The translations under genes were made by a program, and so were the position numbers. The notes beneath the pieces were generated by a model, which ran no database searches, was not told where the DNA came from, and saw nothing but the letters and a program-made list of their open reading frames with translations. Shown here one piece after another: positions 3,144 to 25,966 of a stretch of 64,000 nt of DNA (the first letter of the stretch is position 1; each line of letters begins with the position of its first letter). The stretch is from Thermoplasmatota archaeon (GTDB lineage Archaea > Thermoplasmatota > E2 > DHVEG-1), in the NCBI GenBank assembly GCA_038884455.1, contig JAWABU010000004.1, positions 906 through 64,905 on the forward strand. Direction: 5' to 3'.

Positions 3144-5015
3144 ATGATGATAGTAAAAAAATGTTTATCCATGCTGGTTTGTCTTTTGTTATGTGTGATT
3201 GCATTGACTCCAGGTCAGGCTCACATTACTTCTGGTGAAAAACGAACGCAGGGTGATATTCATGGCAATGTTCGTGAGGAGACACCTGGATGCGGATGTC
3301 AGGATGAAGGTATATCGGACAGTATGAATCAGCAGTATTCAGAACATCATCAGTATCGAACTGGGCTTCTTGTAGGTGGTGAACCACTACCTGAAGGGGA
3401 GATAATCCTGGGGGACCCACCAGCAGCATGGGATTGGCGGTCTGCAACGTATGAAGGAGTCACAGGCGATTGGACAACTGATGTTCATAATCAGGGAAAT
3501 TGCGGGAGTTGTTATGCATTTGGGTCACTGGCTGCATTTGAATCAGTTATTAATATGAAAAAGAAAAATCCAAATTATGATATTGATCTGTCTGAGCAGT
3601 TTATGGTTTCCTGTGGTACGGAGTGGATGTCTGGCATTGAAGGATGTGATGGTGCCTATGCAACGCCGACGTATAATTTTTTAAAGACGTATGGTGCGAT
3701 CCCTGAGTCTTGTTTTCCGTATACGAGCAGCTCTGGTTCGGTTCCATCATGTTCTCAGAAATGTAGCAATTGGCAAAACCTCGTCATCAAAATTGATAGT
3801 TGGCATACCATTGCTGCTGATCAAACTTCAATTAAAAATGCTTTGATTCAGTACGGCCCGTTATCTGCAGGTATGGCTGTGTATTCAGATTTTTATGATT
3901 ACGATGGTGGTGTCTATGAACATCCAGGGAGTGATCCTGATCCAATTAATCATATGGTGTGTATTGTTGGGTATAATGATGCGCAGGGTTGTTGGATTGT
4001 GAAAAACAGCTGGGGATCTTGGTGGGGTGAGAATGGTTGGTTCCGGATAAAATATGGCGAATGTAAAATCGAACAAGCAGTTGTCTATTTTACGTATACT
4101 GATGTTTCTGGTCCACAGCTGAAAATACAAATGCATCGGATCAAAGCGTTGGGAAATATTGAAAACTGGTTTGAGGGTGGAGCTGATTGGTCGTATCAAA
4201 TATCGGTGAATGCTGGTCAGGGTTGGGTTGATCAGGTGAATGATGCGTATTCATCAAATGTCGATGATCAAACCCAAGATGTTGTTCATTCATTTAATGC
4301 TCGCGTTGTTGAACCTGAGATTCGCATTAAAGTCTGGGATCGCGACTCCTTGAGTGGGCATGATCTTGCAGATGTGAGCGGCTATGTTGGTGGAGGTGTT
4401 GATAACGATATCAGTGATGTTCGAGGTGCGATTTTTTATGGGAAATATAATATTGTGACGAACTCCTTTATTCCAATAGACACCATTCAAATTGATGGAG
4501 GTTTTATCACAACTTCAGGTACGTATGCCCCAGATAACAGTGCCAATAGCGATGCTGAGAATGATGCAATGGTTTGGTTTAAGGTATCTGATACGTATAC
4601 GCCGCCGGCTCCAAATCTCATGGTTGCAGGTTCGTTAAATGCCAGTGTCAAGTATGGGACAACCCATTTTTACCTTGGGTCGTTTACCGTGAAAAACATT
4701 GGTGTTGATCCTGAGGGTCTGAGTGATTCGTATCTCAACTGGGAGGTAGCTGCATATCCAAGCTGGGGTGCGAACTGGGAGTTTCAACCAGCAAATGGCG
4801 TGAATCTGAAATCAGGACAGACAGTTACCGTGAAAGTCTATGTCGATGTACCAACAGAAATGAATACTTTCACTGGTTCAATAAAAGTCTGGAACACTGC
4901 TGATCATAGTGATTACGGAATTATCTCTATAACTCTCAAAACACCACGACTATTAGATGGTTCAGGTTTTTCATTTCTTCGTTTCTTATTTCAGTACCGT
5001 TTGATGAAACAATGA
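3144..5015 (+). CDS. secreted papain-like cysteine peptidase (family C1A) with ~300-aa C-terminal beta-rich extension
   Basis: Signal peptide. Active-site motifs are QGNCGSCYAFGS (Cys), NHMVCIVGY (His) and KNSWGSWWGENGWFRI (Asn/Trp). TATA-like box and GGTGGGGG RBS upstream. Confidence 0.9.
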   Translation: MMIVKKCLSMLVCLLLCVIALTPGQAHITSGEKRTQGDIHGNVREETPGCGCQDEGISDSMNQQYSEHHQYRTGLLVGGEPLPEGEIILGDPPAAWDWRSATYEGVTGDWTTDVHNQGNCGSCYAFGSLAAFESVINMKKKNPNYDIDLSEQFMVSCGTEWMSGIEGCDGAYATPTYNFLKTYGAIPESCFPYTSSSGSVPSCSQKCSNWQNLVIKIDSWHTIAADQTSIKNALIQYGPLSAGMAVYSDFYDYDGGVYEHPGSDPDPINHMVCIVGYNDAQGCWIVKNSWGSWWGENGWFRIKYGECKIEQAVVYFTYTDVSGPQLKIQMHRIKALGNIENWFEGGADWSYQISVNAGQGWVDQVNDAYSSNVDDQTQDVVHSFNARVVEPEIRIKVWDRDSLSGHDLADVSGYVGGGVDNDISDVRGAIFYGKYNIVTNSFIPIDTIQIDGGFITTSGTYAPDNSANSDAENDAMVWFKVSDTYTPPAPNLMVAGSLNASVKYGTTHFYLGSFTVKNIGVDPEGLSDSYLNWEVAAYPSWGANWEFQPANGVNLKSGQTVTVKVYVDVPTEMNTFTGSIKVWNTADHSDYGIISITLKTPRLLDGSGFSFLRFLFQYRLMKQ

Positions 5016-5384
5016 ACTATCTATCTTAGATGATGGAAAAAGTTAGGTACAATTCATATTAAAAAAAGAAATCAAGAAATCTATAGAATTTATCGATCAG
5101 ATAAAAAGGAATAGGATACACGAGGTGTTGCGGCCATAAAACACAGGTACTTCTATTTTTTTTTCAGAGAAAAAAACCAAATTAGATAAAAAGAACGTCA
5201 TAGGTTTTTCAGACAAACCCCTAAATCCTGCGATATCTTTAAATACTGTTTTTTATAATTAGTACAGTATCTACGGGGGATCTGTCTGAAATATATACCT
5301 GGTCTGTTTGGCATAGGAGTAGTTCTTCTCAGTGCGATTGCATCTGCGGTACATACTCAGCAAACCGTACCGCCAATTGTTGAA

Positions 5385-6146
5385 ATGCTTAATGATGACG
5401 TACCGATTTGGTCAGTTGGTGATAGTTGGACGTATACAGTTTCTTCGTTTACCGTAGATTATGATGCAAATGGACAACGAGTGTATTGCACAGGTCGTAT
5501 CGATGAGGTCACGTTGACTGTTTCCAGTACGAGTGGAACAAACTACGTTGTTGACGTTACTGGTAAGATAACCTGCGGGTATTCTATCCATGTACGTTCA
5601 TCATCCTTGACTTTAGATATGGTCGGTTCTCTGAAACCATCGACAACGAAATTGGTCGGTTCGATGGTGTTTTCTAAATCAAATCTTCAGCCTGTTGATG
5701 GGACTGCTGTGATTAAGGGTATTTCAATGGCAAAGATTTTGCCGCTTCCTTTTGCAGTACCGCTGCCGATAAAGATATCGCTGGATGGCGACCTTTCACA
5801 ACCATTTCCGTTATTTCAATTTCCGCTGTATACTCATAAATTCTGGGAGATGCCAGATCTCCGGATTCAATCTAACATTAAAGCAGGTGGCATCTTTGGT
5901 TTGATCCAAATTCCGGTAACATTTACTACTCAGTATTCTTGGTTGCCACTTGCGTTCCACTGTGTAGATAAACAATCAATAAGTGTTCCTGCTGGAACGT
6001 ATACTGCTTGGCATATCACATCGACATTCTTTGATATGTTTGATTATTATTATGCACCAGCGGTTGGAAATCTAGTTAAAATTGATGCGGTTCTTCCTAA
6101 CGGAGAAGTTCATGCAGTGTTGAAATCAACGACATATTCAATATAA
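5385..6146 (+). CDS. hypothetical beta-rich secreted protein
   Basis: ORF downstream of the C1A peptidase. In-frame upstream sequence (from 5259) encodes a signal-peptide-like hydrophobic stretch but has no canonical start codon. Confidence 0.5.
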   Translation: MLNDDVPIWSVGDSWTYTVSSFTVDYDANGQRVYCTGRIDEVTLTVSSTSGTNYVVDVTGKITCGYSIHVRSSSLTLDMVGSLKPSTTKLVGSMVFSKSNLQPVDGTAVIKGISMAKILPLPFAVPLPIKISLDGDLSQPFPLFQFPLYTHKFWEMPDLRIQSNIKAGGIFGLIQIPVTFTTQYSWLPLAFHCVDKQSISVPAGTYTAWHITSTFFDMFDYYYAPAVGNLVKIDAVLPNGEVHAVLKSTTYSI

Positions 6147-6216
6147 AAAATAGACACATGAAGTGTTTGGCTATTGATATGAATATAATGAGGTAGAGTA
6201 AGGGGAAAAGAGAATT

Positions 6217-8079
6217 ATGAAAAAAATTGGAGCAATACTCTTAACAGGTTTAGTCCTTATGAGTGGACTTGGTGCTGCTGTATCATTTTCAAAACAACCA
6301 TCAAACATTGTTGAAAATGTCGTTTTTCAAAACATGGTGATTTCTGAAACCGAAACTAATACGATTGTTTCTTTGGATGTATCAAACAGCTGGGTGAAAA
6401 ACCCGGGAAAACCATTACTTCCTATGGTTCAGAAAACATATATTTTTCCGTTTGGTACACAGATTAATAGTGTTGATGTAATATTTGTCAACCCTCAAAT
6501 AATCCAGTTTTCAAAAGAGATTATTCCAGCACCCCTGGCTCAAACAGTGGTTCATGGAAAATTGATTTCTCAACAGCAAGATCAGACAACGAATACTGCT
6601 TTGTATCCTGAAACACCGTTCAGCTATTCTGTCTATGCTGGCATTAAGGGGACAACCCATGTTCTGTTTCTTGTCGTCTACCTGTATCCTATTCGATGTG
6701 ACATCCAAGATAAGATCTTATTTTTTTCAGATGAAGCTGCTCTTCGTATATCATATACGTTACCAGTGCAGCCAGTTTTTACTTCAGATGATTATGATCT
6801 TGTGATTATCGCACCTGAGGTTTTTTCAGAAGCATTGCAACCATTAGTTGAACATAAAAATAGTCATGGTGTTTCAGCGTTTTTGAAGACTGTTGAATCA
6901 ATCTATGCTGAGTATACTGGTGTTGATGAACCTGAACAAATCAAGTATTTTATCAAAGATGCTGTTGAAACCATGGGTGTTGATTATGTGTTGCTTGTCG
7001 GTGGCCAAAAGGGGCAACGGCGATCGTGGTATGTTCCGGTTCGGTATGCAAATCTTGACGATAACTCAGATTTTGAAACTAGTTATGTAAGCGATTTGTA
7101 TTATGCTGATATCTATGATGCCGGTGGTAATTTTTCAAGCTGGGATCCTAATGGGAATGGAATTTTTGCTGAATGGAAAGATGGAACAAAAGAAATCCTT
7201 GATCTTGTTCCTGATGTGTATCTTGGTAGGATTCCCTGTCGTAGTGTGTACTTCGTGAAAATCATGGTTGATAAAATTATCACCTATGAGACGAATGCTG
7301 CTGGAAAATCCTGGTTTAATGATATGGTGGTTGTTGGTGGTGATTCAGCACCTGGAGACCTGTATTATGAGGGTGAAGAGGAAAATAAAAAAGCATTGGA
7401 GTACATGGATTTTTTTAATGGTGTTTCCTGTTGGACATCTGATGAGACATTAACTGGACCGCAAAGTGTTATTGATGCGGTATCTCAGGGTTGTGGTTTT
7501 CTGTTTTTTGATGGTCATGGGAATCCATCAGTGTGGTCAACGCATCCACCTAATAATGAAAGTGTGTGGATTACTGGTTTGAGTAATCGTGATATGCGCA
7601 AGCTTCGAAATGGCGATAAACTCCCGGTTTGTGTTGTTGGCGGGTGTCATAATGCTCAGTTTAATACAAGTTTGATGCGTATCCTTGAAGGTATTAAAAG
7701 TGAGGGTTTTAATTTTTTCAAACGTTCGTTTTATTATAAAGACTGGGTTCCTGAATGTTGGGCTTGGAAAATGGTGCAGGTAAAACGAGGTGGTGCAATT
7801 GCGGTCATGGGATATACTGGTCTTGACTGGTTTGCTACAGGTGATTATACTAGTGATGGCATTCCTGATTGTACCCAGTTTTTTTCAGGGTATGCAAATA
7901 CTCATTTTTTCAAAAACTATGGAGTAAATGATATCACTGTTCTGGGGCAGACACATACACAGACACTTGTTGATTATATCATCGATAACCCGCCGATGAG
8001 TGAACCGCTTGATTGTAAAACAGTTCAAGAATTCGTACTGCTTGGTGATCCAAGTCTTCAGATCGGTGGGTATGTTTAA
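6217..8079 (+). CDS. secreted clan CD cysteine peptidase (gingipain/C25-like)
   Basis: Signal peptide. Putative catalytic dyad FDGHGNP (His) ~45 aa before VCVVGGCHNAQF (Cys), typical clan CD spacing. Paralog of 16731..18620. Confidence 0.65.
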   Translation: MKKIGAILLTGLVLMSGLGAAVSFSKQPSNIVENVVFQNMVISETETNTIVSLDVSNSWVKNPGKPLLPMVQKTYIFPFGTQINSVDVIFVNPQIIQFSKEIIPAPLAQTVVHGKLISQQQDQTTNTALYPETPFSYSVYAGIKGTTHVLFLVVYLYPIRCDIQDKILFFSDEAALRISYTLPVQPVFTSDDYDLVIIAPEVFSEALQPLVEHKNSHGVSAFLKTVESIYAEYTGVDEPEQIKYFIKDAVETMGVDYVLLVGGQKGQRRSWYVPVRYANLDDNSDFETSYVSDLYYADIYDAGGNFSSWDPNGNGIFAEWKDGTKEILDLVPDVYLGRIPCRSVYFVKIMVDKIITYETNAAGKSWFNDMVVVGGDSAPGDLYYEGEEENKKALEYMDFFNGVSCWTSDETLTGPQSVIDAVSQGCGFLFFDGHGNPSVWSTHPPNNESVWITGLSNRDMRKLRNGDKLPVCVVGGCHNAQFNTSLMRILEGIKSEGFNFFKRSFYYKDWVPECWAWKMVQVKRGGAIAVMGYTGLDWFATGDYTSDGIPDCTQFFSGYANTHFFKNYGVNDITVLGQTHTQTLVDYIIDNPPMSEPLDCKTVQEFVLLGDPSLQIGGYV

Positions 8080-8085
8080 AACAGG

Positions 8086-10359
8086 GTGATTGCAATGAAC
8101 AAGAAAATAGTTCCCTTTATTCTTTTCTTTTTGCTTCTTTTTAGTTCTTGTGTTGGTGCAGGTTTTTTTTCGTTGCAGTCGTCAGATCCAACGATGTTAG
8201 TTCGAGTTGATCTGAGCATGCAACAGGTTGTGTTACCTCGGGGTGTGGAAATAGCAAGCATGGTTCCTGAGAGTTATGTTGATATTTTTATCCAACAGAG
8301 CCGTCTTTCAGAACTTCGAGAAAAAACATCAGCATATCGTGTTCTGATTGAAGATGTTGATCTGTATAGTAGTCAGTTTATTGGTCAGTATCACACCCTT
8401 GCACAAATCGAACAAATCCTTGCTGACACGGCTGCAAGCTACCCGTCGATCACCAAATTAACAAGTATTGGATCAACCTATGAGGGTCGAAATATTTATT
8501 GTCTTGAAATTTCTGATAATCCTGGTGTTGATGAAGACGAACCAGGTGTACTCTTTATGGGTTTGCACCATGCACGCGAATGGCCGACGGTTGAGATATG
8601 TTTGTATATTCTCAGTCAGTTAACTTCACAGTATGGAAGTGATTCGATGTTGACAAACCTGGTAGATACTCGTCGTGTTTGGATTGTTCCTTGTGTGAAT
8701 CCTGATGGGTATTACTACTGTCATGATCAGGGTCATGACTGGCGGAAAAACCGGCAGTATTTCTCCCAGTTTGGAACCATAGGTGTTGATCTGAATAGGA
8801 ATTATGATGGTACGTGTAATGGTGAACCTATGGGTGCATGGGGATCTGTGATGAATGGAGCAGCAACGCATTCACCTAATCAAGAAACCTATTGCGGTCC
8901 AGCTGCTTTTTCCGAGTATGAAACCCAAGCTATTAAAAACATGTTTCTAACCAATGATATTTGCGCTTCGATTAGCTGGCATACCTATTCTGAATTGGTT
9001 CTCTGGCCGTGGGGGTATGCAACCAACGAACAGACACCAGATAATACGTATCTGAAACAAGTTGGTCAGGGTATTGCTGCTCGTATCACCAAGCAATCTG
9101 GTTCTGGTACGTATACCCCGCAGCAAAGCGCAGCGTTGTATCCAACCACCGGTGATACTGATGACTGGGCATATGGCTATGCACATTATATTCAGGGAAG
9201 AAATACGTTTGCATATACAATTGAAGCTTGTTCTCAGTTTCAACCACCAGCCTCCAAGCTTGATCAGATATGTGCTGAGAATTTTGATGGTGCACTGTTT
9301 CTTCTAAAGGAAGCTGCAAATATAAGTGCACTGATCCCACGACCATTGCCACCGGTTCTCACTGTACCTTCGAGTGATCCTGATGGGAACTATCTTGTTT
9401 CATGGACTGAGCAGAACCCTTCTGCTGGTGTTGATTGTTTTCAGCTTGATGAACTCAGTCGTTTTCATGTTTTAGTTGATGATGCAGAATCATCAGAGAT
9501 TCAATGGACTTTGATTGGTTTTACCAAAAGTTCAGATCAGATGCATTCCGGTACACAAAGCTACAAAGCCAAGAATCAGAATAATTATGTTTCTTCAATG
9601 ACCAGTAACTATGCAATGCCGGTTACGAGTGGTATGATTTTGTCGTTTTGGACATGGTATAGCATTGAGAATCAATGGGATTATGCGTTTGTTGAGGTGA
9701 GCCGTGATGGGCGGAAGTATGACGTCCTTGATGCGTATACTGGTTCCTCATCAGGTTGGGTGCAGAAACAATATGATCTCAGTAGTTATGCTGATAACTC
9801 GGTTTTTATCAGGTTGCGATATACGACTGATGATGAAACGCTCGGGTCTGGTTTTTATGTTGATGATATCAGCCCGGTTCCAGTGTTTGACCAGAGTGTG
9901 ACGCTTTCTGATACTATTGGGGATACATCATTTGAGGTTTCTGGCAAAGCAAATGGGACGTATTACTATCGTGTCCGAGCTCATAATACTGTTCGTGGGT
10001 GGGGTGACTATAGCATGCTTCAAAAAATACTGGTTGGTAGTGGTGAGGATACCCAGCCGCCCAGTGTTCAGATCATGGTTCCTGCTGAGAAAAAACTGTA
10101 TCTTGGATCAAGGATGTTTCCGTTTTTTGTAACCCTTGTGATTGGGCGTATCACCGTTGAGGTTAGTGCTGTGGATGCATCTGGGATTGATCAGGTTGAG
10201 TTTTATCTAGATGGTATATTTGTTGGAAATGATACCGAGGAACCATATACCTATGCATGGGTGCAGAAAAGCTTTGGGAAACATGTTGTAGCAGTGATTG
10301 CTGTTGATACGTATGCAAATCAGGCTTCACAGGAAATAGCCGTGTGGAAGTTTTTCTGA
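8086..10359 (+). CDS. secreted zinc carboxypeptidase (peptidase M14) with C-terminal Ig-like domains
   Basis: M14 zinc-binding motif GLHHAREWPTVEI (HxxE). Signal peptide with SSC lipobox-like site. Only 6 nt after the upstream clan CD gene. Confidence 0.8.
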   Translation: MIAMNKKIVPFILFFLLLFSSCVGAGFFSLQSSDPTMLVRVDLSMQQVVLPRGVEIASMVPESYVDIFIQQSRLSELREKTSAYRVLIEDVDLYSSQFIGQYHTLAQIEQILADTAASYPSITKLTSIGSTYEGRNIYCLEISDNPGVDEDEPGVLFMGLHHAREWPTVEICLYILSQLTSQYGSDSMLTNLVDTRRVWIVPCVNPDGYYYCHDQGHDWRKNRQYFSQFGTIGVDLNRNYDGTCNGEPMGAWGSVMNGAATHSPNQETYCGPAAFSEYETQAIKNMFLTNDICASISWHTYSELVLWPWGYATNEQTPDNTYLKQVGQGIAARITKQSGSGTYTPQQSAALYPTTGDTDDWAYGYAHYIQGRNTFAYTIEACSQFQPPASKLDQICAENFDGALFLLKEAANISALIPRPLPPVLTVPSSDPDGNYLVSWTEQNPSAGVDCFQLDELSRFHVLVDDAESSEIQWTLIGFTKSSDQMHSGTQSYKAKNQNNYVSSMTSNYAMPVTSGMILSFWTWYSIENQWDYAFVEVSRDGRKYDVLDAYTGSSSGWVQKQYDLSSYADNSVFIRLRYTTDDETLGSGFYVDDISPVPVFDQSVTLSDTIGDTSFEVSGKANGTYYYRVRAHNTVRGWGDYSMLQKILVGSGEDTQPPSVQIMVPAEKKLYLGSRMFPFFVTLVIGRITVEVSAVDASGIDQVEFYLDGIFVGNDTEEPYTYAWVQKSFGKHVVAVIAVDTYANQASQEIAVWKFF

Positions 10360-10444
10360 AACAATCCTTTTTTCTTTTCTTCCATGTTAGTTTTTTCATT
10401 TTATGGTGTTGCAGTTTTTTTGTCGAATGGAGTATTTTTACTGC

Positions 10445-10498: not shown

Positions 10499-10582
10499 AC
10501 CGTAGTAGGGTTTTATGTTTCTCTGAAATAATATTGTTTTTTATGGGACTACATTTGAAAACGAAACCTTGGAGGAATACCT

Positions 10583-16311: not shown

Positions 16312-16312
16312 T

Positions 16313-18620: not shown

Positions 18621-18679
18621 TCGGTTTTTCGTTTATAGACAATTAGTCAGGTGATGCAATGATATTTTAAGGTGCCTCT

Positions 18680-19969
18680 ATGAACCATGGCGCATATTTT
18701 GGAGTGATGCTTTGTTGTTTTCTATGCATCGGTGTTATCCAACAGCCGTATTATGTTCAATCCGCTGGTGCAACTAGTTCTGATCAAACAGAAGATATTC
18801 TTGAGATGATCAGTCAGGTTGATGAAGGACTTGTGCAAAACTATGTTACAAAGCTTTGTGCGTTTCGACCACGGTATACTGGAACTACGCTGTGTACTCT
18901 TGCAGCTCAGTATCTATTTGATGAGTTGAGTTCTATGGGTCTTGAAACTAGTTTTCATGAGTGGTTCTATAAGGGTTTTAGAAGTAGGAATGTGGTTGCA
19001 ACACTTCCTGGTACTGATCCAGAGAGTACTGCTGTTTTTATTATCTGCGGGCATTATGATACTGTGGAAGTATCACCAGGTGCTGATGATGATGCGTCTG
19101 GTGTTGCATCGGTGCTTGCCTGTGCTCGTATTATGAGTCAGTATTCTTTTCCTCATACGATACGTTTTATTGCTTTTTCTGGTGAAGAGGTTGGAACACT
19201 GGGGAGTTTTTCGTATGCACGTGATGCGTATCGGCAGGAAGACAATATTGTTGCAGTATTAAATCTTGATATGGTTGGATATGCAAACAGTGCTGAGGGT
19301 GGAAGCACTCTTCGGTTTTTTCCAGCACCGCGAGCACGGTGGATAGCAGATTTTGCAGAAAGCATCAGTGAAAAATACAAGGATATCATTGATATGAATG
19401 TTGAGATTCTTCCATGTTATATTGGTTCTGATGCGCAGCCTTTTATTGATTATGGGTATGATGGTGTATGGATTGCGCATCATGATGGGTATTCCTGGGG
19501 CCATTCAGCAGATGATGTTCCTGAGCATTTGAATTACACGTATCATGCAAAAGCAACTCGTTTTATGCTTGCGGTGCTTGCTGAGTTTGCGATTAAACCC
19601 CTACCGGTTCAGGTGATTATTAAAACACCGTTGGAAGGGTATGGGTATTTTTTTGATCGACCTACGATAAAACTTGATCTTGGTAAACAGTGGTATAAAG
19701 GCCTCCGGGGGATCACGATTGCCATCGGTCGTCCTGTTGTTCGGGTTGATGTTCTGAGCAGTGAACCGATTAAGTATGTTGTTTTTTGTGTTGATGGGAA
19801 TTTTATGTATTGGGATAGTCAAGCGCCGTTTGAATGGAAACTAGGAGGTTTGCATTATCCACTGGTTGGTCGACATACACTTCAGGTCTATGCGTATACA
19901 ACTGAGGGAAACAGTGCTGTAGATGAGATGCAAATTATTATACTCACATTTTCATGTCAGTATTCATAA
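18680..19969 (+). CDS. secreted M28 family aminopeptidase with C-terminal Ig-like module
   Basis: Signal peptide. M28 metal-site motifs HYDTV...GADDDASGVA...FSGEEVG. AAGGTG RBS. Confidence 0.8.
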   Translation: MNHGAYFGVMLCCFLCIGVIQQPYYVQSAGATSSDQTEDILEMISQVDEGLVQNYVTKLCAFRPRYTGTTLCTLAAQYLFDELSSMGLETSFHEWFYKGFRSRNVVATLPGTDPESTAVFIICGHYDTVEVSPGADDDASGVASVLACARIMSQYSFPHTIRFIAFSGEEVGTLGSFSYARDAYRQEDNIVAVLNLDMVGYANSAEGGSTLRFFPAPRARWIADFAESISEKYKDIIDMNVEILPCYIGSDAQPFIDYGYDGVWIAHHDGYSWGHSADDVPEHLNYTYHAKATRFMLAVLAEFAIKPLPVQVIIKTPLEGYGYFFDRPTIKLDLGKQWYKGLRGITIAIGRPVVRVDVLSSEPIKYVVFCVDGNFMYWDSQAPFEWKLGGLHYPLVGRHTLQVYAYTTEGNSAVDEMQIIILTFSCQYS

Positions 19970-19976
19970 AAGAACA

Positions 19977-20687
19977 ATGATACGTATGGCAAAAAGTATT
20001 GGTTTCCTTGCTGTTTTTCTGGTGACTTGTTCGTTTGCTTCATCGTATCATGTGGTATGTACAAATGAACTGATTATTTTTCCCTCTTCACCGGTTGTGC
20101 TGGTTACCGGTTTTGAGCCTTTTGCTGATTTTGATATTAATCCGTCGCAGATAATCGTTGAGGAACTCCAGAATCAAACAGTTCATGGTCTGCAGGTTGT
20201 TGGGGTGGTATTGCCAGTTAATTTTACTTCTGCTGATATGATACTTGTTCAGGTACTCCAGCACTATCAACCGTTTCTCATGATCAGTCTTGGTTTGTCA
20301 CCCAAGGCAACTACTCTTGAAGTTGAGACATGGGCTGTGAATATGAAACGATATCCGCTTGATTCAGGAAGGTGGTCGTTTCCTCGAAAAATAGAGCAGG
20401 ATGGTCCTTTGCTTCGTTTATCATCCCTCAATACCCGTGCGGTTATTCGGGAGTTGAAAAATCATGATATCCCATCGGAGCAGAGTTTTTTTGCTGGTAC
20501 GTATCTCTGTAATTATGTATTTTACCGAGCACAAAGCATTGTGAAAACAATGGATCTTTCTACTCATGTTGGTTTTATACATGTCCCCCTCCTTGATGTG
20601 CAAAGTCAACACGGTATGAAACTTCAAACTATGGTTGATGGCGTGAAAGTAGTCATTGGTTTGTACTCTACTTCAAACAGCATATGA
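19977..20687 (+). CDS. pcp: pyroglutamyl peptidase I (C15) with N-terminal signal/anchor
   Basis: VLVTGFEPFADFDINPSQ core and a conserved C-terminal region. N-terminus MIRMAKSIGFLAVFLVTCSFASS is hydrophobic. Start chosen downstream of the M28 stop. Confidence 0.75.
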   Translation: MIRMAKSIGFLAVFLVTCSFASSYHVVCTNELIIFPSSPVVLVTGFEPFADFDINPSQIIVEELQNQTVHGLQVVGVVLPVNFTSADMILVQVLQHYQPFLMISLGLSPKATTLEVETWAVNMKRYPLDSGRWSFPRKIEQDGPLLRLSSLNTRAVIRELKNHDIPSEQSFFAGTYLCNYVFYRAQSIVKTMDLSTHVGFIHVPLLDVQSQHGMKLQTMVDGVKVVIGLYSTSNSI

Positions 20688-20722
20688 AAAAGTTTTATAA
20701 AGAAATGAGTGCTTGACTTAGT

Positions 20723-20989
20723 GTGATGAGAGAGTTAACGAAAGCACGGTTGACAGTTGGTTTGTTAGCTTTTTTTGCGTCAGTCTGGATTGTCATCCGG
20801 AAGATCTTTATCTCTTTTGATCAGCTGTTTATAACATTTGGTTTTATTGTTTTGCTGTTGTTTGTTATTCTGATCCTGTCGGTTGTTATCCTTGGGATTT
20901 TAGAATGGGTGCATATTTTTGATTTGAGAACCAACTCGATTCTGACGTTGATTGTTGTGATTGTTATCAGCGTTTCAACTGTGTTATAA
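20723..20989 (+). CDS. small membrane protein (2 TM)
   Basis: Two hydrophobic helices. No family recognised. Confidence 0.4.
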   Translation: MMRELTKARLTVGLLAFFASVWIVIRKIFISFDQLFITFGFIVLLLFVILILSVVILGILEWVHIFDLRTNSILTLIVVIVISVSTVL

Positions 20990-21032
20990 CGGTGATATCA
21001 AAGTGTATTCTTTTTCCTTATGGGTTTTTGTT

Positions 21033-21941
21033 TTATCTGTTGAGTTCTCGCATGATATGAACTGAGCCGGTTACGATTCCTTGATCATTGATAATAGGTG
21101 ATGCTGATATTTGGAGTTTTTTACCGAGATGCTCATCAAAGAATTCCACGGTGATTGGTTTTTTGAGTTGTTGTACTTGTTGGCAAGGACAAGGTTGATG
21201 AACGTGGTTTGTTCCATGGAGAAGTGTATAGCATTTTTTTCCAATGCATTGGTCTGGTGAGAGGTTGAAAAAATCGGCAAATGATTTGTTTGCGCGGATG
21301 ATGGTGTTTTCGGCGTCATGGATTGAGATCATTTCGTTGACTGAGTTAAAAGTTGTTTCCCATTCATGGATGACTTGTCTCAGTTTTTTTTCAGTGTTTT
21401 TTCGTTCGGTGATGTCTTCAATGATCAGTGTTACTCCAGGTTCTCCATCGTCGAAGGTTGTTGGGATGTATTTCATGTTGAGATAGAATTTTTGTTGATT
21501 GGTTGCAAATTCGATTTCTGTAGTTGTATCAGAGCCGTCGAGTGCTTTTTGGACGTTGGTGGTGAAGTCAGTAATTTGAAAGAGTGGTATGAGAAGTGTA
21601 TCGATGGTTTTCCCGATGATGTCGTTTCGTGATGTTTTGAGAAATTCGAGGAGGTTTTCATTGATTTGGATGATTCTGTGGTCTTTGTCAATGAGCAGGA
21701 CGTAGTCGAGGGTGAAATTGAGTACTGCTGAAAGTGGTACTCGTCTGCTCGGGAAAAATACTTTTGCTGGGCCGAACGTGACCATTTCTGCATGGCCTGA
21801 GATAAGGAGGATGTCGAGGTATTTGGCAACTGAGTTGCGGTTAATGTTGATTTCTCGAGCGATGTCGGTAACGGTCATTCCTCGAGGATTGCTTTTGAGA
21901 ATGGTCCGTATTTGGGTGAGCTCTTTTTGGTAACTTTCCAC
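21033..21941 (-). CDS. HTH plus PAS-domain transcriptional regulator
   Basis: N-terminal HTH (GMTVTDIAREININRNSVAKYLDIL) followed by PAS-like repeats. Confidence 0.65.
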   Translation of the reverse strand: MESYQKELTQIRTILKSNPRGMTVTDIAREININRNSVAKYLDILLISGHAEMVTFGPAKVFFPSRRVPLSAVLNFTLDYVLLIDKDHRIIQINENLLEFLKTSRNDIIGKTIDTLLIPLFQITDFTTNVQKALDGSDTTTEIEFATNQQKFYLNMKYIPTTFDDGEPGVTLIIEDITERKNTEKKLRQVIHEWETTFNSVNEMISIHDAENTIIRANKSFADFFNLSPDQCIGKKCYTLLHGTNHVHQPCPCQQVQQLKKPITVEFFDEHLGKKLQISASPIINDQGIVTGSVHIMRELNR

Positions 21942-21960
21942 AGAGGCACATGGGTTGTAC

Positions 21961-22056
21961 GATATTTATGCATTTCGCTTTTGCCATGCAATTAAAGAAA
22001 AGTTTATATACTATATTATGCATTATAGTATTGCCTTGCATAATCGCATGGCGAAA
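21961..22056. promoter_or_regulatory. imperfect inverted repeat with reiterated ATGCA(T/A) motifs upstream of the HTH-PAS regulator gene
   Basis: TATGCATTTCGC...GCCATGCAAT // ATTGCCTTGCATAATCGCATGGCGAAATG, read directly from the sequence. Confidence 0.35.
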
Positions 22057-22410
22057 TGGTGAAGGGAAAAGATATGAAGAATCGTAACTCAGAACAACGA
22101 GTTTCGTCATCTTCGCGTACACAACACATCTCATCTACACATAACCCACAATATCATCTTCAACAAACGGGGGAGGTTGCCCACCATCATCCATCGCATC
22201 CTACAGAAGTTTCACACTTCTGTCTTCTCCCACACCGCTTCATCCTCCTCCATTCTCGGTATCAAAATGGACTGCCACCATCGTTTCCATTCCTCCTCAT
22301 CGGAACAGTAGGTACCTCTCGAAGATTATTTTCACGCATCCCATCTCCTTTTTTTTTAACCATCTCTTAAGAGAGGTACCCATCCCATCCTTCTTTCAAC
22401 AAATGCATCT

Positions 22411-23448
22411 TCACCAAAAATGACAGTACTCCATGATCTGAGTCTCATTTACCGATTCTTGTTGATCGGCAATTGAAATCGTACCAGTAACCAACATATG
22501 AAACCGCCAATACCGAAGCATTCCAAGCATATGAAAATCAATTGATTGCACAGAAAAACGAACAGCAACATCGATATCATCCTCATGAATTTCAAACATA
22601 GATTCAAGAGGAATCAATTTTCCATGATGATACTGATACTGAATGTGAGTAAGCTTGATATTTTCACGGTGAATGCTGGTGTAATTCAGAGTATCGCGAT
22701 TAATCATAACAAGGAAAAAATCTTCGCACCATCTGTTTTTCATATTTTGTGAAAAAATAATTGAAAAATGTGTCGATGAGAATTTTCCCCAAAACCAACT
22801 CTTATGAAAACGACGAACGTCAAACCCACGTTCTTGGTACCCTACTCCTTTAACCATGAAAATTGTATCATCCCATTGAAGTGTCCCAACAACCACAGCT
22901 CGTGGTACAGGACACCCCCAAATACCATGACCGGTGTATCCTTTCCAGCCCTGTATTTGACTAATAAATATGAGATTTGCAGATACTGTTTTAATTGACA
23001 GGTTGAGAGATACACAGAGATGGTTCTCAGCATCATAAAAGGTGCTGAGCAGTTCTTTTCCCTGCAGTTGTAATCGAGGTTCTGCTGGTGAAAACTGCAT
23101 CATCCTGAGAGGAATAACACGATGCAATCGTGCTACAATCGTAGCATGATCATACAAACTAATTCTAAGGAGGAAAAATCCTGTTTTTCCTTGGGTTCCT
23201 ATAGAAAGGATTCCGACATGGATGCTGTAGTTGTTAGTGAACAACGCATCAAAGTACCACCATTGCAGTGACCAGTACGACGTAATGTTATATGCATTAT
23301 CGAGAAGTGTGATATCTGTTGGTTCGTACCATCTCGGATCGTTGCTTTTCACTGCCGGTATTTGAAAAAGGGCTACCCCTACAGTGAGAATCATGCATAT
23401 AGAACATATAGTTTTCTTCATGGGTTTTATTAATATATAAAACATCAA
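22411..23448 (-). CDS. hypothetical secreted/lipo-protein
   Basis: N-terminal signal-like segment. No confident family assignment. Confidence 0.5.
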   Translation of the reverse strand: MMFYILIKPMKKTICSICMILTVGVALFQIPAVKSNDPRWYEPTDITLLDNAYNITSYWSLQWWYFDALFTNNYSIHVGILSIGTQGKTGFFLLRISLYDHATIVARLHRVIPLRMMQFSPAEPRLQLQGKELLSTFYDAENHLCVSLNLSIKTVSANLIFISQIQGWKGYTGHGIWGCPVPRAVVVGTLQWDDTIFMVKGVGYQERGFDVRRFHKSWFWGKFSSTHFSIIFSQNMKNRWCEDFFLVMINRDTLNYTSIHRENIKLTHIQYQYHHGKLIPLESMFEIHEDDIDVAVRFSVQSIDFHMLGMLRYWRFHMLVTGTISIADQQESVNETQIMEYCHFW

Positions 23449-23538
23449 TATTTATATAACTTTAGTAATAAGCGAATCCAAAACCTTTATAGAGATACAT
23501 TTATAAAATTAGACTGCTTATTATATATCCATGAAACC

Positions 23539-24864
23539 ATGAAACATATTCAAAAAACACAGATAACATCAAGTATTATTGTCTTCTGCTTTTTCGTTTC
23601 AGTACTACCTGCTGTTTCCTCTTCTTTTATCGGCGCACCACAATCACCGGGTGTTTCTCAGGATTCTACTCATCTCTCAACGGATTTATATAACCCAAAA
23701 GTTGCTGCAGCACTCAGTCAAATCACTGAGGGTCGTCTTCGTGAGATTCTTACAGTGCTTGTTGGTTTTTCTCCACGGTTTACAGGAACCTATGGATGCG
23801 AACAAGCAGCAAACTATATCTATGATTTTTTTCAGAGTAACCATCTTCAAACGCGGTACCACAACTGGAGCTCATGGGGGAACGAGTATCATCGACGGTT
23901 TTTTTCCAGCAGAAACATCGAAGCAACCATCCCTGGAACAGACAAGAAGAATACTGTTCTTTTGTTCAGTGCACACTATGATGGTGTGAAAAGTGCTCCT
24001 GCAGCTAATGATGATGGCAGCGGTACGGCGGCAGTTCTTCTTTCAGCTGCAGTTTTGAATCAATTTAGTTTTAACCATACTTTGAAGTTTGTAGCTTTTT
24101 CTGGTGAAGAAATTGGTTTGCTAGGTAGTCACGCTTATGCAAAAGAATCCTATGAAAATCATGAGAACATTTTGTTGAATATCAATGCAGATATGATTGG
24201 TCATGCCGAAACCAGTGAAGGCGGGAGCAGAATGGGTATTTCTTCATCAGAAGATCTAGCTTGGCTTTTTGATATTGCTGATAGTCTTTGTAGTATCTAT
24301 GATATTGATTTGACGATAAGTCGTGGTAGTATCAATCGTGATGGTCGCGGCTGGAGCGATTATTTTTCTTTTATTGAATACGGCTATGAGGCATTTGCCT
24401 GTTGGGGCGGAGAACATGATCCAAATATGCATACTTCAAAGGATGACCTAAACAATGTAAATTTTTCCTATCTTGTAAAAACCACTCGTTTGATTACAGC
24501 ACTGCTTGGAACACTGGCTGATTACGAGGATTTTTACCCCCAAGTGACAATTGCATCACCTCGAATTGGAAAGCTCTACATTGAAGGAAGAGAAAAACGT
24601 AGCATCGGTGATCTCAAAACTATAGTTCTTAATGATATCTGGATTTGGGCTGATGTTCGCTATGCTTCAGTGCCGATTCTCCGCGCTGAGTTTTATCTCG
24701 ATGATCGTCTCATGTATACTGATACGCAGGTCCCGTTCTCTTGGCAGTTCAATAAATTTTCAGTGGGGACCCACCGAGTGACGATACTTGTGTATGATGA
24801 ACTGGGGAGAAAATCTTCTGAGTATCGAGATATTCGTTTCATTAATCTTTTACTTAAAAAATAG
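23539..24864 (+). CDS. secreted M28 family peptidase with C-terminal Ig-like module
   Basis: Signal peptide. M28 motifs HYDGV...ANDDGSGTAA...FSGEEIG. C-terminal ~100 aa homologous to the C-termini of 18680..19969 and 8086..10359. Confidence 0.8.
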   Translation: MKHIQKTQITSSIIVFCFFVSVLPAVSSSFIGAPQSPGVSQDSTHLSTDLYNPKVAAALSQITEGRLREILTVLVGFSPRFTGTYGCEQAANYIYDFFQSNHLQTRYHNWSSWGNEYHRRFFSSRNIEATIPGTDKKNTVLLFSAHYDGVKSAPAANDDGSGTAAVLLSAAVLNQFSFNHTLKFVAFSGEEIGLLGSHAYAKESYENHENILLNINADMIGHAETSEGGSRMGISSSEDLAWLFDIADSLCSIYDIDLTISRGSINRDGRGWSDYFSFIEYGYEAFACWGGEHDPNMHTSKDDLNNVNFSYLVKTTRLITALLGTLADYEDFYPQVTIASPRIGKLYIEGREKRSIGDLKTIVLNDIWIWADVRYASVPILRAEFYLDDRLMYTDTQVPFSWQFNKFSVGTHRVTILVYDELGRKSSEYRDIRFINLLLKK

Positions 24865-24952
24865 GTTTTTCTGGGAGGAATATTTAAAAACCGGTTTGAT
24901 TTCTCCATTTGTACACTGCATCCTATTTTTGATGAAGGGAGAAAAGAAGAGT

Positions 24953-25966
24953 ATGAACAAGAGCAGGAAGATACTATCATATATGGAGGTATTCGTCATT
25001 TTGTTTTCAATGGGTTCCATGGTTCTCATTTCGTTTGATAGCCATGCACTACAGATTGGACCCGAAATAACAATTACCACTGATCAGCTAGAATATTATC
25101 CTGGTGAGCAGGTTTCCATTTCTGGTCGTATACTCAATGATGGTCAAGGAGTCCCCTCATCTCCTCTCTGTGTACACGTGAACGATTCTGAAGAAAACAT
25201 GATTTTTGGTACCTGCGGACTGTCAAATAATTATGGAAATTATACATTTACTTTTTCATTAGACGAATATGCACTGCTTGGTACCTATCATGCAGAAGCA
25301 CACTCATATCAGTTTGATATTAAAACGACAACTTCCTTTGAGGTCGTATCAACTGTAGTGATAGTTGAGATATCAGGACCTTGTAACGGTGTCACAGGTG
25401 TTCCTGTATCGTTCTTCGGCTCGGCAACTGGTGGCAAAAAACCGTATAGCTGGCTGTGGAATTTTGGAGATCAGCAGATCTCCGCTGAACAAAACCCACA
25501 TCATATCTATTCAACTCCTGGAAATTACACGGTTGTTCTCACAGTTACCGATACAGATGGTCATACCGGTACCGATCTGCTACTAATCACAATTCTACCT
25601 GGTGAAAATCAGACACCAAATCAGCCTATGATCTCGGGTCCGTCATCCGGAAAAATAAAAACTGAATATACCTACAATCTTTCAGCAGTTGATCCCGACG
25701 GAGATCAAGTGTATTTTTGGATTGAATGGTGTGAAAATTGTGTTGAGCCACAGTGGATTGGGCCATATGATTCTGGCGAAATCGTACCGGTACAGCACGC
25801 CTGGGAAAAGAAAGGAATGTATACCATCAGGTTGAAGGCAAAAGATACCATGGGTGCTGAGAGTGCATGGACAACGTTTGAAGTGAGCATGCCGAAGGAA
25901 AACCGTATCTTCCGCAGTATGTTTTTCTGGTTCTTGAAAAGTCGTTTTCCTCGTTTTTTTGGGTGA
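24953..25966 (+). CDS. secreted PKD-domain protein
   Basis: Signal peptide. PKD motif WLWNFGDQQISAEQNPHHIYSTPGNYTVVLTVTDTDGHTG. Start set at the internal Met after the M28 stop. Confidence 0.7.
   Translation: MNKSRKILSYMEVFVILFSMGSMVLISFDSHALQIGPEITITTDQLEYYPGEQVSISGRILNDGQGVPSSPLCVHVNDSEENMIFGTCGLSNNYGNYTFTFSLDEYALLGTYHAEAHSYQFDIKTTTSFEVVSTVVIVEISGPCNGVTGVPVSFFGSATGGKKPYSWLWNFGDQQISAEQNPHHIYSTPGNYTVVLTVTDTDGHTGTDLLLITILPGENQTPNQPMISGPSSGKIKTEYTYNLSAVDPDGDQVYFWIEWCENCVEPQWIGPYDSGEIVPVQHAWEKKGMYTIRLKAKDTMGAESAWTTFEVSMPKENRIFRSMFFWFLKSRFPRFFG

Follow-up and report, generated by a model that had tools for sequence, protein, structure and literature searches.

Background

Extracellular peptidases are said to be a feature of the MBG-D archaea (Marine Benthic Group D), their repertoire reportedly having been described by Lloyd and colleagues in Nature in 2013. 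The C25, C1A, M14 and M28 families are listed among the extracellular peptidases of the Thermoprofundales (Zhou et al. 2019, PMC6461988), and in White Oak River sediment C25 accounts for 41-45% of the signal-peptide peptidase genes, Arg-specific endopeptidase substrates being hydrolysed fastest there (Steen et al. 2019, PMC6752024). The locus described here comes from the same phylum and carries the same families (C25 gingipain-like, C1A, M14, M28), predicted to be exported, and the degradation of detrital protein is the role proposed for both; M11B2D_scaffold_792_1, an orthologue of our C25a, is among the peptidases published as highly transcribed, its TPM in a metatranscriptome from mangrove sediment being 23,848 (PMC6461988). 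However, the literature that we examined gives peptidases genome by genome and describes no conserved gene cluster: neither "gene cluster" nor C15 or "pyroglutamyl" occurs in the text of PMC6461988.

The gingipains of Porphyromonas gingivalis (RgpB, Kgp) share with our C25 enzymes the catalytic domain, the His/Cys dyad, an acidic residue that aligns with the Arg-binding Asp163 and a long region before the catalytic domain (weak Propeptide_C25 matches exist in archaeal orthologues), and in both organisms a C25 endopeptidase is found alongside an exported M14 carboxypeptidase with Ig-like or PKD-like domains. The similarity is nevertheless remote (E 1e-10 with a single sequence). The C25 of our locus has neither the C-terminal domain of type IX secretion nor a haemagglutinin/adhesin domain, and it belongs to an archaeon, in which type IX secretion is presumably lacking. 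In P. gingivalis the genes of the gingipains and of the M14 carboxypeptidase CPG70, which is also involved in surface-protein processing, are dispersed, whereas the C25 and M14 genes are adjacent in the archaeon.

Carboxypeptidase T of Thermoactinomyces vulgaris (CPT; M14A, PDB 1obr) is the best solved relative of our M14 (9e-56), which keeps its zinc ligands and catalytic Glu, and also the Asp of the S1' pocket that corresponds to CPT Asp260. Our enzyme differs by extra MAM-like and Big_7 domains and by an Asp (YPTTGDTDDW) at the position of carboxypeptidase B Asp255 and carboxypeptidase A Ile255, a position taken by Ile, Thr, Val, Leu or Cys in its orthologues. Pyroglutamyl peptidase I (C15, e.g. 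1a2z of Thermococcus litoralis) belongs to a cytosolic family. The C15 of our locus has the same catalytic domain and Glu-Cys-His triad, but a hydrophobic segment, a signal or an anchor, lies before the first strand, where the solved enzymes begin, and its gene is coupled to that of a predicted exported M28.

Seven peptidases in one cluster

The stretch of DNA that we analysed ("the window", 64,000 nucleotides) comes from a Thermoplasmatota MAG; "Candidatus Thermoplasmatota archaeon" is also the label borne by the exact C25 protein. Between 3144 and 25966 we found the following features.

3144-5015, plus strand: C1, papain-family cysteine peptidase, predicted exported (623 aa; Peptidase_C1 PF00112, E 2e-49)
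5286-6146, plus strand: conserved all-beta protein, predicted exported, no assigned function (286 aa from CTG 5286)
6217-8079, plus strand: C25a, gingipain-family (C25, clan CD) cysteine peptidase, predicted exported (620 aa; PF01364, E 6e-61)
8086-10359, plus strand: M14, zinc carboxypeptidase of carboxypeptidase-T type, predicted exported (PF00246, E 1e-73)
10377-16715, no strand: strain-specific 6.3-kb insertion in the M14-C25b spacer (from sister-strain alignment)
10583-11137: wHTH gene in the insertion
11387-12811: 474-aa protein in the insertion, predicted exported
12944-14014: NosD-like beta-helix protein in the insertion, predicted exported
14034-16669, no strand: nested decayed insertion sequences (IS), 24-nt imperfect inverted repeats on the outer element
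16731-18620, plus strand: C25b, second gingipain-family peptidase, predicted exported (629 aa; PF01364, E 2e-51)
18680-19969, plus strand: M28a, aminopeptidase-type metallopeptidase, predicted exported (429 aa; PF04389, E 3e-37)
19977-20687, plus strand: C15, pyroglutamyl peptidase, predicted exported or membrane-anchored (PF01470, E 1e-35)
21033-21941, minus strand: one-component regulator, HTH and two PAS (302 aa; PAS_4, PAS_9, PAS; weak HTH_11/HTH_24)
22411-23448, minus strand: AttH/CrtC-like double beta-barrel protein, predicted exported, not a peptidase (345 aa)
23539-24864, plus strand: M28b, second M28 metallopeptidase, predicted exported (441 aa; PF04389, E 3e-33)
24953-25966, plus strand: MG2 and PKD surface protein, predicted exported, not a peptidase (PKD_4 E 6e-22; MG2 4e-9)

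The initial annotation had counted eight peptidases of five families, all with signal peptides. The five families (C1, two C25, M14, two M28 and C15) stand where it had placed them, and the Pfam profile search that it had called for confirms every one; the peptidases are however seven, the PKD/MG2 protein having no peptidase domain. All seven have intact catalytic residues. By a hydrophobicity heuristic, which is not SignalP and may count uncleaved membrane anchors among its N-terminal segments, export-like segments are carried by all seven peptidases, as had been claimed, and by five neighbouring proteins, namely PKD/MG2 and four further non-peptidase proteins. A single N-terminal hydrophobic segment is observed in 12 of the 14 non-IS products against 3 of the 36 other genes of the window (Fisher p = 3e-7), and 7 of these 14 products are peptidases, compared with 0 of the other 36 (p = 3e-5). 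The cluster is confirmed as a real group of seven peptidases of an uncultured sediment-type archaeon, predicted from hydrophobicity to be exported.

One could imagine that the clustering is due to chance or to annotation, unrelated neighbours or decayed peptidase pseudogenes having been taken for a group, and the gene at 5286-6146 indeed lacks a canonical start codon. This idea, to which we give next to no credence, is refuted by the enrichment in peptidases and by the conservation of gene order across species (see below); every ORF is moreover full length, with intact catalytic motifs.

The enzymes and their neighbours

The closest solved relatives of the C1 peptidase are the catalytic domains of cathepsin C/DPP1 and cathepsin L (1e-35), and the motifs of Gln/Cys (NQGNCGSCYAF), His (NHMVCIVGY) and Asn/Trp (NSWGSWWGENG) are kept. 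Its N-terminal segment is MMIVKKCLSMLVCLLLCVIALTPGQA; no I29 propeptide was matched in it, and a beta-rich C-terminal extension of about 300 aa and a degenerate C-terminal tail complete the protein, whose orthologues lie immediately upstream of C25a at seven loci. For the all-beta gene, the longest ORF opening with ATG, GTG or TTG, which is also the NCBI call, is 5385-6146 (253 aa), without the signal peptide.

In C25a (signal peptide by the heuristic: MKKIGAILLTGLVLMSGLGAAVS) a region of about 190 aa precedes the Pfam C25 match, and no domain follows the catalytic region, the match reaching residue 615 of 620. His434 (DGHGNP) and Cys477 (GGCHNAQF), invariant in 24 homologues, are aligned to His211 and Cys244 of RgpB, and the invariant Glu385 to the Arg-binding Asp163. 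C25b is 45% identical to C25a with the same invariant His/Cys motifs, and is its old paralogue; the TATA-like AACATTTATATAG ahead of it, present also in the sister strain, is retained just right of the IS, and a C25b-type orthologue followed by M28a is found at 13 loci.

M14 starts 6 nt past the stop of C25a and is therefore probably co-transcribed with it; it lies immediately downstream of a C25a orthologue in 20 of the 27 loci with enough sequence. The motifs HHARE, WRKNR, DLNRNY, SWHTYSE and YTIEAC are all retained in orthologues. As the S1' residue varies among these (Asp, Ile, Thr, Val, Leu, Cys), the sequences do not support a fixed functional coupling of M14 to Arg/Lys-specific cleavage. 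Its C-terminal domains are an InhA-like MAM (PF20773) and a Big_7 (PF17957); C-terminal anchors are swapped among M14 orthologues.

M28a can be aligned with 1amp, a leucyl aminopeptidase from bacteria (7e-19), and retains GHYD, GADDDASG, GEEVG and LNLDM, its last zinc-binding His (HSADD) being read straight off the sequence rather than from the alignment. The C15 ORF opens at 19923 (19923-20687), with a likely start at Met19 or Met22, that is 7-16 nt past the M28a stop, and C15 follows M28a in all nine loci extending far enough. Among solved structures it matches 1a2z, a pyrrolidone carboxyl peptidase (2e-29), whose catalytic Glu (here in VETWAVN), Cys (in YLCNYV) and His (in GFIHVP) it retains, and in eight of nine orthologues (the ninth is unclear) a hydrophobic N-terminal segment stands directly before VLVTGFEPF. 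The cluster genes other than the closely spaced M14 and C15 are preceded by TATA-like and Shine-Dalgarno-like elements.

The HTH-PAS gene, which lies on the opposite strand, is also conserved as part of the cluster: it has the same position at six loci (41-69% identity), where M28b orthologues come after it. M28b has a C-terminal Big_7 domain (PF17957) and, by the heuristic, the signal peptide MKHIQKTQITSSIIVFCFFVSVLPAVSS. The PKD/MG2 ORF opens at 24788, the start being placed at Met56, in agreement with the gene call of the sister strain (337 aa); at one other locus this gene is absent and NFACT directly follows M28b. Its C-terminus EVSMPKENRIFRSMFFWFLKSRFPRFFG matches the HMM of the "MPK tail" (E 3e-13), a conserved unannotated tail that forms the very C-terminal end of many exported proteins in these genomes, including C1 and PKD/MG2 here.

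The cluster could serve the maturation of the cell surface instead of feeding, C25 and M14 processing or attaching the cell's own exported proteins, possibly those with the "MPK tail". PorU, a C25-family sortase, and the gingipains of P. gingivalis are a precedent, weak PorU-like matches exist (NF033707 E 1e-20, far below the cut-off; PorU 6za2 2e-4), and both the tail and the exchange of anchors among M14 orthologues agree with it. However, the C25 profile is much nearer to gingipain R (2e-17) than to PorU (only 2e-4), the many C25 paralogues per genome, some very highly transcribed, fit digestive enzymes better than a sortase, and aminopeptidases or a pyroglutamyl peptidase have no obvious sorting role. 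We regard this reading as unlikely.

Conservation of the cluster and its insertion

The order is CBS, 250-aa gene, (C1), (286-aa gene), C25a, M14, C25b, M28a, C15, PAS (minus strand), M28b, NFACT, followed by Pelota. This order and this position between the same housekeeping genes are kept in at least 12 other species-level genomes; therefore, the cluster is conserved core synteny and not an accessory island. The order recurs at 12 loci, that of the sister strain included, and is spread over separate contigs in M11B2D and SMAG_U13117. C25a identity across syntenic loci is 47 to 75%, the C25a of the window's species being only 47-60% identical to that of the species-representative genomes found. 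Around the cluster lie housekeeping genes: those of NFACT, Pelota, a topoisomerase, purine synthesis, AglB and GGGP synthase. An ABC system next to it (1514-3042) is of the ABC-2 exporter type and absent at this position in other species, and no peptide or amino-acid importer was found in the locus. Orthologous clusters in the recognised Thermoprofundales (MBG-D) MAGs SM1-50 and M11B2D bear out the link first drawn with sediment archaea having gingipain-like genes. Such co-localisation, initially thought unusual for an archaeal genome, is the rule in the lineage and not the oddity of one genome.

The only accessory part of the stretch is 10377-16715. In the sister strain (GCA_038740275.1) about 55 nt take its place, the sides aligning at 97.3% and 98.7%, and it is likewise missing in a further genome, L001. 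It is foreign in composition, with a GC of 0.348 (cargo) and 0.444 (IS) against 0.402 for the window, and its tetranucleotide correlations to the rest of the window (0.83 for the cargo, 0.81 for the IS) are lower than those of all control windows of the same size; it is a separate recent insertion. The inverted repeats of the outer IS (14034-14057 and 16646-16669) are 83% complementary, and the inner element (ORFs 14803-15279 and 15478-16311) interrupts the DDE transposase gene of the outer one: residues 88-180 of the L001 transposase match 14452-14739 and residues 189-251 match 16375-16563. The DDE_Tnp_1 matches are weak (17-21 bits for a Pfam gathering cut-off of 23) and the transposase genes fragmented; no second copy of the IS exists within the window. 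The wHTH, PAS and IS elements described as interspersed are all present, but wHTH and IS are confined to this single strain-specific insertion, and so are not interspersed regulators of the cluster.

The IS remnants and the foreign block might suggest that the whole 23-kb stretch is a horizontally acquired, IS-mobilised island which added protein scavenging to the genome, the "accessory" "island" of the initial annotation. The tetranucleotide signature of part A (3144-10376) is also somewhat atypical (correlation 0.908; minimum of same-size housekeeping controls 0.951), and one published study assigns C25 genes to predicted plasmid contigs in 27 Thermoprofundales genomes (PMC9585477). Against this, the order and flanks are the same in all these species at the C25a identities given above, the IS block is missing from the cluster of the sister strain, GC is that of the window (0.408 vs 0.402), no tRNA, integrase or direct repeat lies at the borders 3144 and 25966, and the amino-acid composition of beta-rich exported proteins can account for the signature of part A. 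Given the synteny, the acquired island is largely refuted and we hold it to be very improbable: the cluster is an old and conserved chromosomal feature, not a recent acquisition. The comparison of synteny and composition proposed at the outset shows a conserved cluster of normal GC, with 10377-16715 strongly atypical and part A somewhat so. Core synteny without secretion signals had been named as one contrary outcome; the core synteny was found, together with export-like segments.

Discussion

We conclude, with a probability of roughly 0.75, that the cluster is chromosomal, was inherited vertically in a Thermoplasmatota lineage and encodes an exported proteolytic toolkit, 10377-16715 being a separate recent insertion. 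The families, the catalytic residues, the hydrophobic N-terminal segments, the spacing of the genes and their conserved order and position are what we observed; secretion itself, substrate specificities, co-regulation and a nutritional role are what we infer, in the following way. The toolkit would consist of three endopeptidases (one papain-family C1, two gingipain-family C25) and four exopeptidases (the carboxypeptidase-T-like M14, two aminopeptidase-type M28 and the pyroglutamyl peptidase C15), exported by the Sec pathway. The C25 and C1 enzymes would make internal cuts in detrital proteins, M14, co-transcribed with C25a, would trim the new C-termini, and C15 would remove the blocking N-terminal pyroglutamate, so that trimming from the N-terminal side by the M28 co-transcribed with it could proceed; expression would probably be controlled by the conserved HTH-PAS protein.

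Finally we must note that the extracellular C25, C1A, M14 and M28 peptidases of the lineage were already published. Relative to the literature that we examined, what is new is that the cluster has a fixed place on the chromosome, that C25 is paired with M14 and M28 with C15, that an HTH-PAS gene is conserved with them, and that the C15 is predicted to be exported. The two pairs are the tightest conserved ones, and suggest a toolkit of endopeptidases and exopeptidases for the breakdown of extracellular protein.

Gene content of the cluster

The cluster at 3144-25966 runs from the first codon of a papain-family gene to the stop codon of a PKD-domain gene. It contains the following genes.

Genes of the cluster (window coordinates; Pfam scores in bits)
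3144-5015, Peptidase_C1 (Pfam, 169 bits)
6217-8079 and 16731-18620, Peptidase_C25, genes C25a and C25b (Pfam PF01364, 207 and 176 bits against a cut-off of 23)
8086-10359, Peptidase_M14 with MAM-like and Big_7 domains (Pfam)
10583-11137, wHTH gene
12944-14014, NosD-like beta-helix gene
18680-19969 and 23539-24864, Peptidase_M28, genes M28a and M28b (Pfam, 129 and 116 bits)
19923-20687, Peptidase_C15 (Pfam PF01470, 124 bits)
21033-21941, minus strand, gene with an HTH and two PAS domains
24788-25966, PKD and MG2 domains, without a peptidase domain (Pfam)
Three further ORFs within 3144-25966, without Pfam match

Each peptidase family named in the initial annotation was found by Pfam, with scores far over the curated cut-offs. 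The count of eight peptidases has to be lowered, however: seven peptidases in five families stand, while the eighth protein (PKD/MG2) has no peptidase domain. Neither of the two unknown genes of the cluster is a peptidase, and the Pfam matches of the DDE-transposase fragments within it are weak. Peptidases account for 7 of the 14 non-IS genes of the cluster against none of the 36 other genes of the window (p = 3e-5). The remainder of the window is archaeal housekeeping in character (NFACT, Pelota, topoisomerase, purine synthesis, GGGP synthase, AglB, geranylgeranyl reductase, TyrRS/TrpRS).

Predicted export and start codons

Predicted export was judged by a Kyte-Doolittle scan for N-terminal hydrophobic segments. 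All seven peptidases have a single segment of this kind, mostly behind a Lys or an Arg, and the secretion signals previously claimed for them are borne out as far as this heuristic goes. The segment is also present on the 286-aa, 474-aa, NosD-like, 345-aa and PKD proteins, which brings the count to 12/14 non-IS cluster genes, compared to 3/36 other window genes (p = 3e-7). By sequence, the set is one of three endopeptidase-type and four exopeptidase-type enzymes, each with a predicted export-type N-terminus.

The ORF 5385-6146 appears without a signal peptide because no ATG, GTG or TTG start lies upstream of it in frame. Reading in frame from the CTG at 5286 gives KYIPGLFGIGVVLLSAIASA, preceded by a GGGGGAT motif, and the 285-288-aa orthologues of this 286-aa gene have a Met at exactly the position of that CTG. 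The public annotation of the gene (QXL17_01245, 253 aa) and the mechanical ORF both begin 33 codons late and omit the signal peptide. Either translation starts at this CTG or the start codon has recently mutated. For the PKD gene, the likeliest start is Met56, as called in the sister strain GCA_038740275.1.

Outside the cluster, further proteins of exported or surface type are a Big_7 protein (31054-32364, minus strand), a 754-aa protein without Pfam match (50181-52445, plus strand) and a protein with a PQQ-like beta-propeller and PKD (62985-63914, minus strand), although the scan detected no N-terminal hydrophobic segment on the last. The AglB oligosaccharyltransferase (44853-49136, minus strand) is unusually long, with 1427 aa and C-terminal CarboxypepD_reg/prealbumin-like domains.

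Conserved gene order

An NCBI protein from a MAG named 'Candidatus Thermoplasmatota archaeon' has the same sequence as C25a (100% identity), and among the more than 3,000 homologues found those with a named source are all labelled Thermoplasmatota, Thermoplasmatales or Thermoplasmata. With the C25 alignment as query against one genome for each prokaryotic species, more than 586 stretches matched; the top 80 all lie in MAGs labelled either Thermoplasmatota or with older or unspecific archaeal names (Euryarchaeota, Methanobacteriota, 'archaeon'). The gene order at those loci was read by tblastn with all the proteins of the window. Where a C25a orthologue is present (47-75% identity), the order is

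CBS - 250-aa gene(-) - [C1] - [286-aa] - C25a - M14 - C25b - M28a - C15 - HTH-PAS(-) - [345-aa] - M28b - NFACT

Orthologous loci
L006, C1-C25a-M14-C25b-M28a-C15-PAS-M28b
L026, CBS through M28b
L022, 250-aa gene through NFACT
L001, the relative with 75% identity
L010, Thermoplasmatales archaeon SM1-50
L014 and L036, M11B2D, the cluster being divided over two contigs

M14 immediately follows C25a at 20 of the 27 loci with sufficient sequence, C15 follows M28a at 9/9 loci, and the PAS gene follows C15 at 6/7. The cluster occupies the same site in the sister strain, in L001 and in at least ten species. SM1-50 and M11B2D are Thermoprofundales (MBG-D) MAGs according to Zhou et al. (PMC6461988). Since the same order is found between the same flanks across species, we concluded that the cluster is old and has a fixed location on the chromosome. 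It had first been read as an accessory island; the synteny comparison put forward along with that reading was run, and it refutes it, the cluster being syntenic across the lineage. Only for 10377-16715 is there same-site absence in close relatives, and within the cluster this block alone is accessory. No tRNA gene and no Rfam match turned up when the window was scanned, hence no tRNA-linked integration site is present; neither an integrase nor a border repeat was found at the cluster borders, and the IS sits inside the cluster and not at a border.

Two differences concern the ends of the locus. Between M28b and NFACT, the window and the sister strain both have the PKD/MG2 gene (24953-25966), whereas L022 lacks it (19996-20105), so it is a variable cluster edge. 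An ABC-2 type transporter pair (ATPase and permease, 1514-3042) separates the 250-aa gene from C1 in this window only, the 250-aa gene directly adjoining C1 in L005, L007, L009, L013 and L025; this pair may be a second lineage-specific insertion.

The insertion block and local composition

The sister strain aligns to the window over 6193-10376 at 97.3% identity and over 16716-33388 at 98.7%, with about 55 nt in place of 10377-16715. This 6.3-kb block contains the wHTH gene, the 474-aa protein and the NosD-like protein (GC 0.348), together with a 2.6-kb nested IS remnant (GC 0.444) whose imperfect inverted repeats of 24 nt lie at 14034-14057 and 16646-16669. In the outer IS, the DDE transposase gene is interrupted by a second element. 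The tetranucleotide correlations of the two parts of the block with the rest of the window, 0.83 and 0.81, are under those of all the control windows of the same size. The insertion left the TATA-like box of C25b intact, having landed between it and the stop codon of M14. The M14-C25b spacer is variable elsewhere too, with 2-4 kb extra in L004, L008 and L010. At L001 (3-863), an intact DDE transposase gene lies at the contig end, a short way upstream of the 286-aa gene; it is of the same family as the decayed outer IS of the window, and judging from these sequences the locus seems to be a repeated target of this IS family.

A check of GC and tetranucleotides had also been proposed for the supposed island, and it does not single out the cluster: its GC is 0.408, that of the window 0.402, and only part A (3144-10376), itself of normal GC, is mildly deviant in its k-mers, with a tetranucleotide correlation to the housekeeping part of 0.908 against a same-size control minimum of 0.951. 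Part B (16716-25966) is near the controls (0.959 against a minimum of 0.965). As part A keeps its synteny from one species to the next, we tentatively put its deviation down to an unusual amino-acid make-up of beta-rich proteins destined for export.

Catalytic features of the peptidases

In C25a, His434 (DGHGNP) and Cys477 (GGCHNAQF) are invariant across 24 aligned C25 homologues, and in the profile of this alignment the His-then-Cys dyad aligns to His211 and Cys244 of RgpB, a C25 peptidase of P. gingivalis. The profile matches gingipain R with an E value of 2e-17, compared to 2e-4 for the PorU sortase. The invariant Glu385 is aligned with the Arg-binding S1 residue Asp163 of RgpB, in a profile alignment of low identity. 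The catalytic domain is preceded by about 190 aa, with weak Propeptide_C25 matches in the orthologues only. The type IX secretion C-terminal domain is absent from C25a: the match reaches residue 615 of 620 and the protein then ends. That domain is a feature of bacterial gingipains and not part of the MEROPS definition of family C25. As an analogy in function the gingipain/CPG70/PorU system of P. gingivalis is helpful, though the relationship to it is remote. In the C1 protein, the Gln, Cys, His and Asn are kept and the motifs align to the catalytic domains of cathepsin C and cathepsin L; the I29-type inhibitory propeptide typical of C1A was not found in it, and only about 65 residues separate signal peptide and catalytic domain.

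The closest solved relative of M14 is carboxypeptidase T (9e-56). Its zinc ligands, its Arg/Asn-Arg/Tyr substrate binders and its catalytic Glu are kept (HHARE, WRKNR, DLNRNY, SWHTYSE, the Tyr of YPTTGD, YTIEAC), and these motifs are retained in the window and in at least 19 orthologues. Within residues 352-361 (YPTTGDTDDW, window 9139-9168), the position of Ile255 of carboxypeptidase A and of Asp255 of carboxypeptidase B is Asp in the window, L001 and L002, and Ile, Thr, Val, Leu or Cys in other species (mostly Ile, Thr or Val); the adjoining Asp, equivalent to Asp260 of carboxypeptidase T, is invariant among the syntenic orthologues. The preference of M14 for the C-terminal residue may thus differ between species. 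A role of M14 as a carboxypeptidase-B-like partner, removing Arg/Lys ends left by the gingipain-like enzymes, was dropped as a general rule, the residue equivalent to Asp255 not being Asp in most orthologues.

Both M28 proteins retain the co-catalytic zinc ligands, in the order His, Asp, Glu, Asp and His, and the catalytic Glu. In M28a, the motifs GHYD, GADDDASG, GEEVG and LNLDM align to 1amp; the last zinc-binding His, read directly from the sequence, is in HSADD in M28a and in HTSKDD in M28b.

The Glu-Cys-His triad of C15 is present, aligned to 1a2z. This protein is a divergent member of its family, as its NCBIfam equivalog scores (131-139 bits) are under the cut-offs of 199-274. While the solved pyroglutamyl peptidases start at the first strand (VLITGFEPF), a hydrophobic segment precedes this strand in the window and in 8 of 9 orthologues (the ninth was not resolved), and the likeliest start is probably Met19 or Met22. 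C15 is thus, from its sequence features, a family member by its catalytic domain and predicted to be atypical in its location, the family being expected in the cytosol.

A recurrent C-terminal tail

Exported PKD, C1-like, C25, M14 and NosD-like proteins share at their extreme C-terminus a tail, here called the MPK tail, which reads '...W..L.V[TS]MP[KR]' followed by about 30 aa of the pattern '...FL..FP..FPILR..LGL', for example 'NKAFNMNLLFLRFLEQHPxMFPILRxMLGL'.

Occurrences of the MPK tail
Window, 25880-25966 (C-terminus of the PKD protein) and 4930-5015 (C-terminus of C1)
L002, 627-2003, 6175-8823 (minus strand) and 11961-14339
L078, 1018-2178, 3488-4594, 4913-6004, 11948-13267 and 15888-16685
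M14 genes of L017, L019 and L024; also L053 and L056

An HMM built from 10 tails found further copies, every one at the end of an ORF (E down to 4e-17 outside the training set). Neither Pfam nor NCBIfam yielded a credible match to the C-terminal tails, and the MPK tail may be an unrecognised sorting or anchoring signal. That it is a sorting signal recognised and cleaved by the abundant C25-family enzymes, or by a subset such as C25a/C25b, is in our opinion a long shot; if true, these archaea would have an equivalent of the PorU-CTD system found in bacterial type IX secretion, and the locus would be more than a set of digestive enzymes.

Among M14 of the window (8086-10359) and its orthologues in L001-L026, L036 and L042, the C-termini are of three kinds according to species: Big_7 ending in ...WKFF, a short hydrophobic segment ...GTVLLIFVIGVK, or PKD with the MPK tail. 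The NCBIfam 'choice-of-anchor J' domain gave a sub-threshold match on M14. These differing ends look like a swapping of anchors.

Proposed regulation and function

C25a and M14 are separated by 6 nt, M28a and C15 by 7-16 nt. Each of the other genes of the cluster is preceded, at 35-50 nt, by a TATA-like box of its own, and they show Shine-Dalgarno-like motifs; the one-component HTH-PAS gene belongs to the conserved content of the cluster. Following export by the Sec pathway, the C25 and C1 enzymes would cut proteins internally, perhaps once their N-terminal pro-region has been removed; M14 would trim the C-termini, C15 would strip the pyroglutamate caps and M28 would then trim the N-termini, while the PAS protein would adjust expression to some signal. 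Pyroglutamate caps, which arise spontaneously from N-terminal Gln or Glu, block aminopeptidases. On a more speculative reading, to which we give little probability, the predicted exported C15-M28 pair would serve specifically for 'de-blocking' old detrital peptides that end in pyroglutamate.

The reading of the locus as a degradome for extracellular protein is well supported at the sequence level. The proposed breakdown fits the White Oak River sediment, where C25 makes up 41-45% of the signal-peptide peptidase genes and substrates of Arg-specific endopeptidases are hydrolysed fastest (PMC6752024), and M11B2D, where the C25a orthologue (scaffold_792_1, our L014) reaches a TPM of 23,848 (PMC6461988). 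A simple feeding role is another matter. Bacterial PULs join enzymes and sensor to a dedicated importer; the cluster has none, no Opp/Dpp-type or amino-acid transporter being found in window 1-30000, where the ABC-2 pair, missing from the orthologous loci, is the sole transporter. Uptake of protein carbon by Thermoprofundales was not detected by isotope probing (PMC9123169). The missing importer, the S1' residue of M14 which varies by species and this null result all speak against such a simple role.

Discussion

Thermoprofundales-type archaea rank with the most abundant cells of marine sediments, and it is still disputed whether buried protein is what they live on: studies of genomes and enzyme assays speak for it, but isotope probing has failed to show it (PMC9123169). 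For that debate the cluster offers a compact and well-defined target, its peptidases forming a single conserved unit whose chromosomal position is fixed and which includes two closely spaced enzyme pairs and a regulator of sensor type, itself conserved.

Of what has been described, the extracellular peptidase repertoire of MBG-D/Thermoprofundales comes closest, and its families and proposed ecology match the cluster. The accounts of it consulted here mention no conserved cluster, C15 enzyme, C25-M14 pair or M28-C15 pair, and in the literature on these archaea we found no described peptidase gene cluster or extracellular pyroglutamyl peptidase. The cluster is hence a well-organised new example of an already known kind of peptidase repertoire. 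It leaves the picture of these archaea unchanged and adds detail to it, namely the gene organisation, a predicted exported pyroglutamyl peptidase and a candidate sorting tail; the unit can be tracked in metatranscriptomes, used as a lineage marker and expressed in heterologous hosts.
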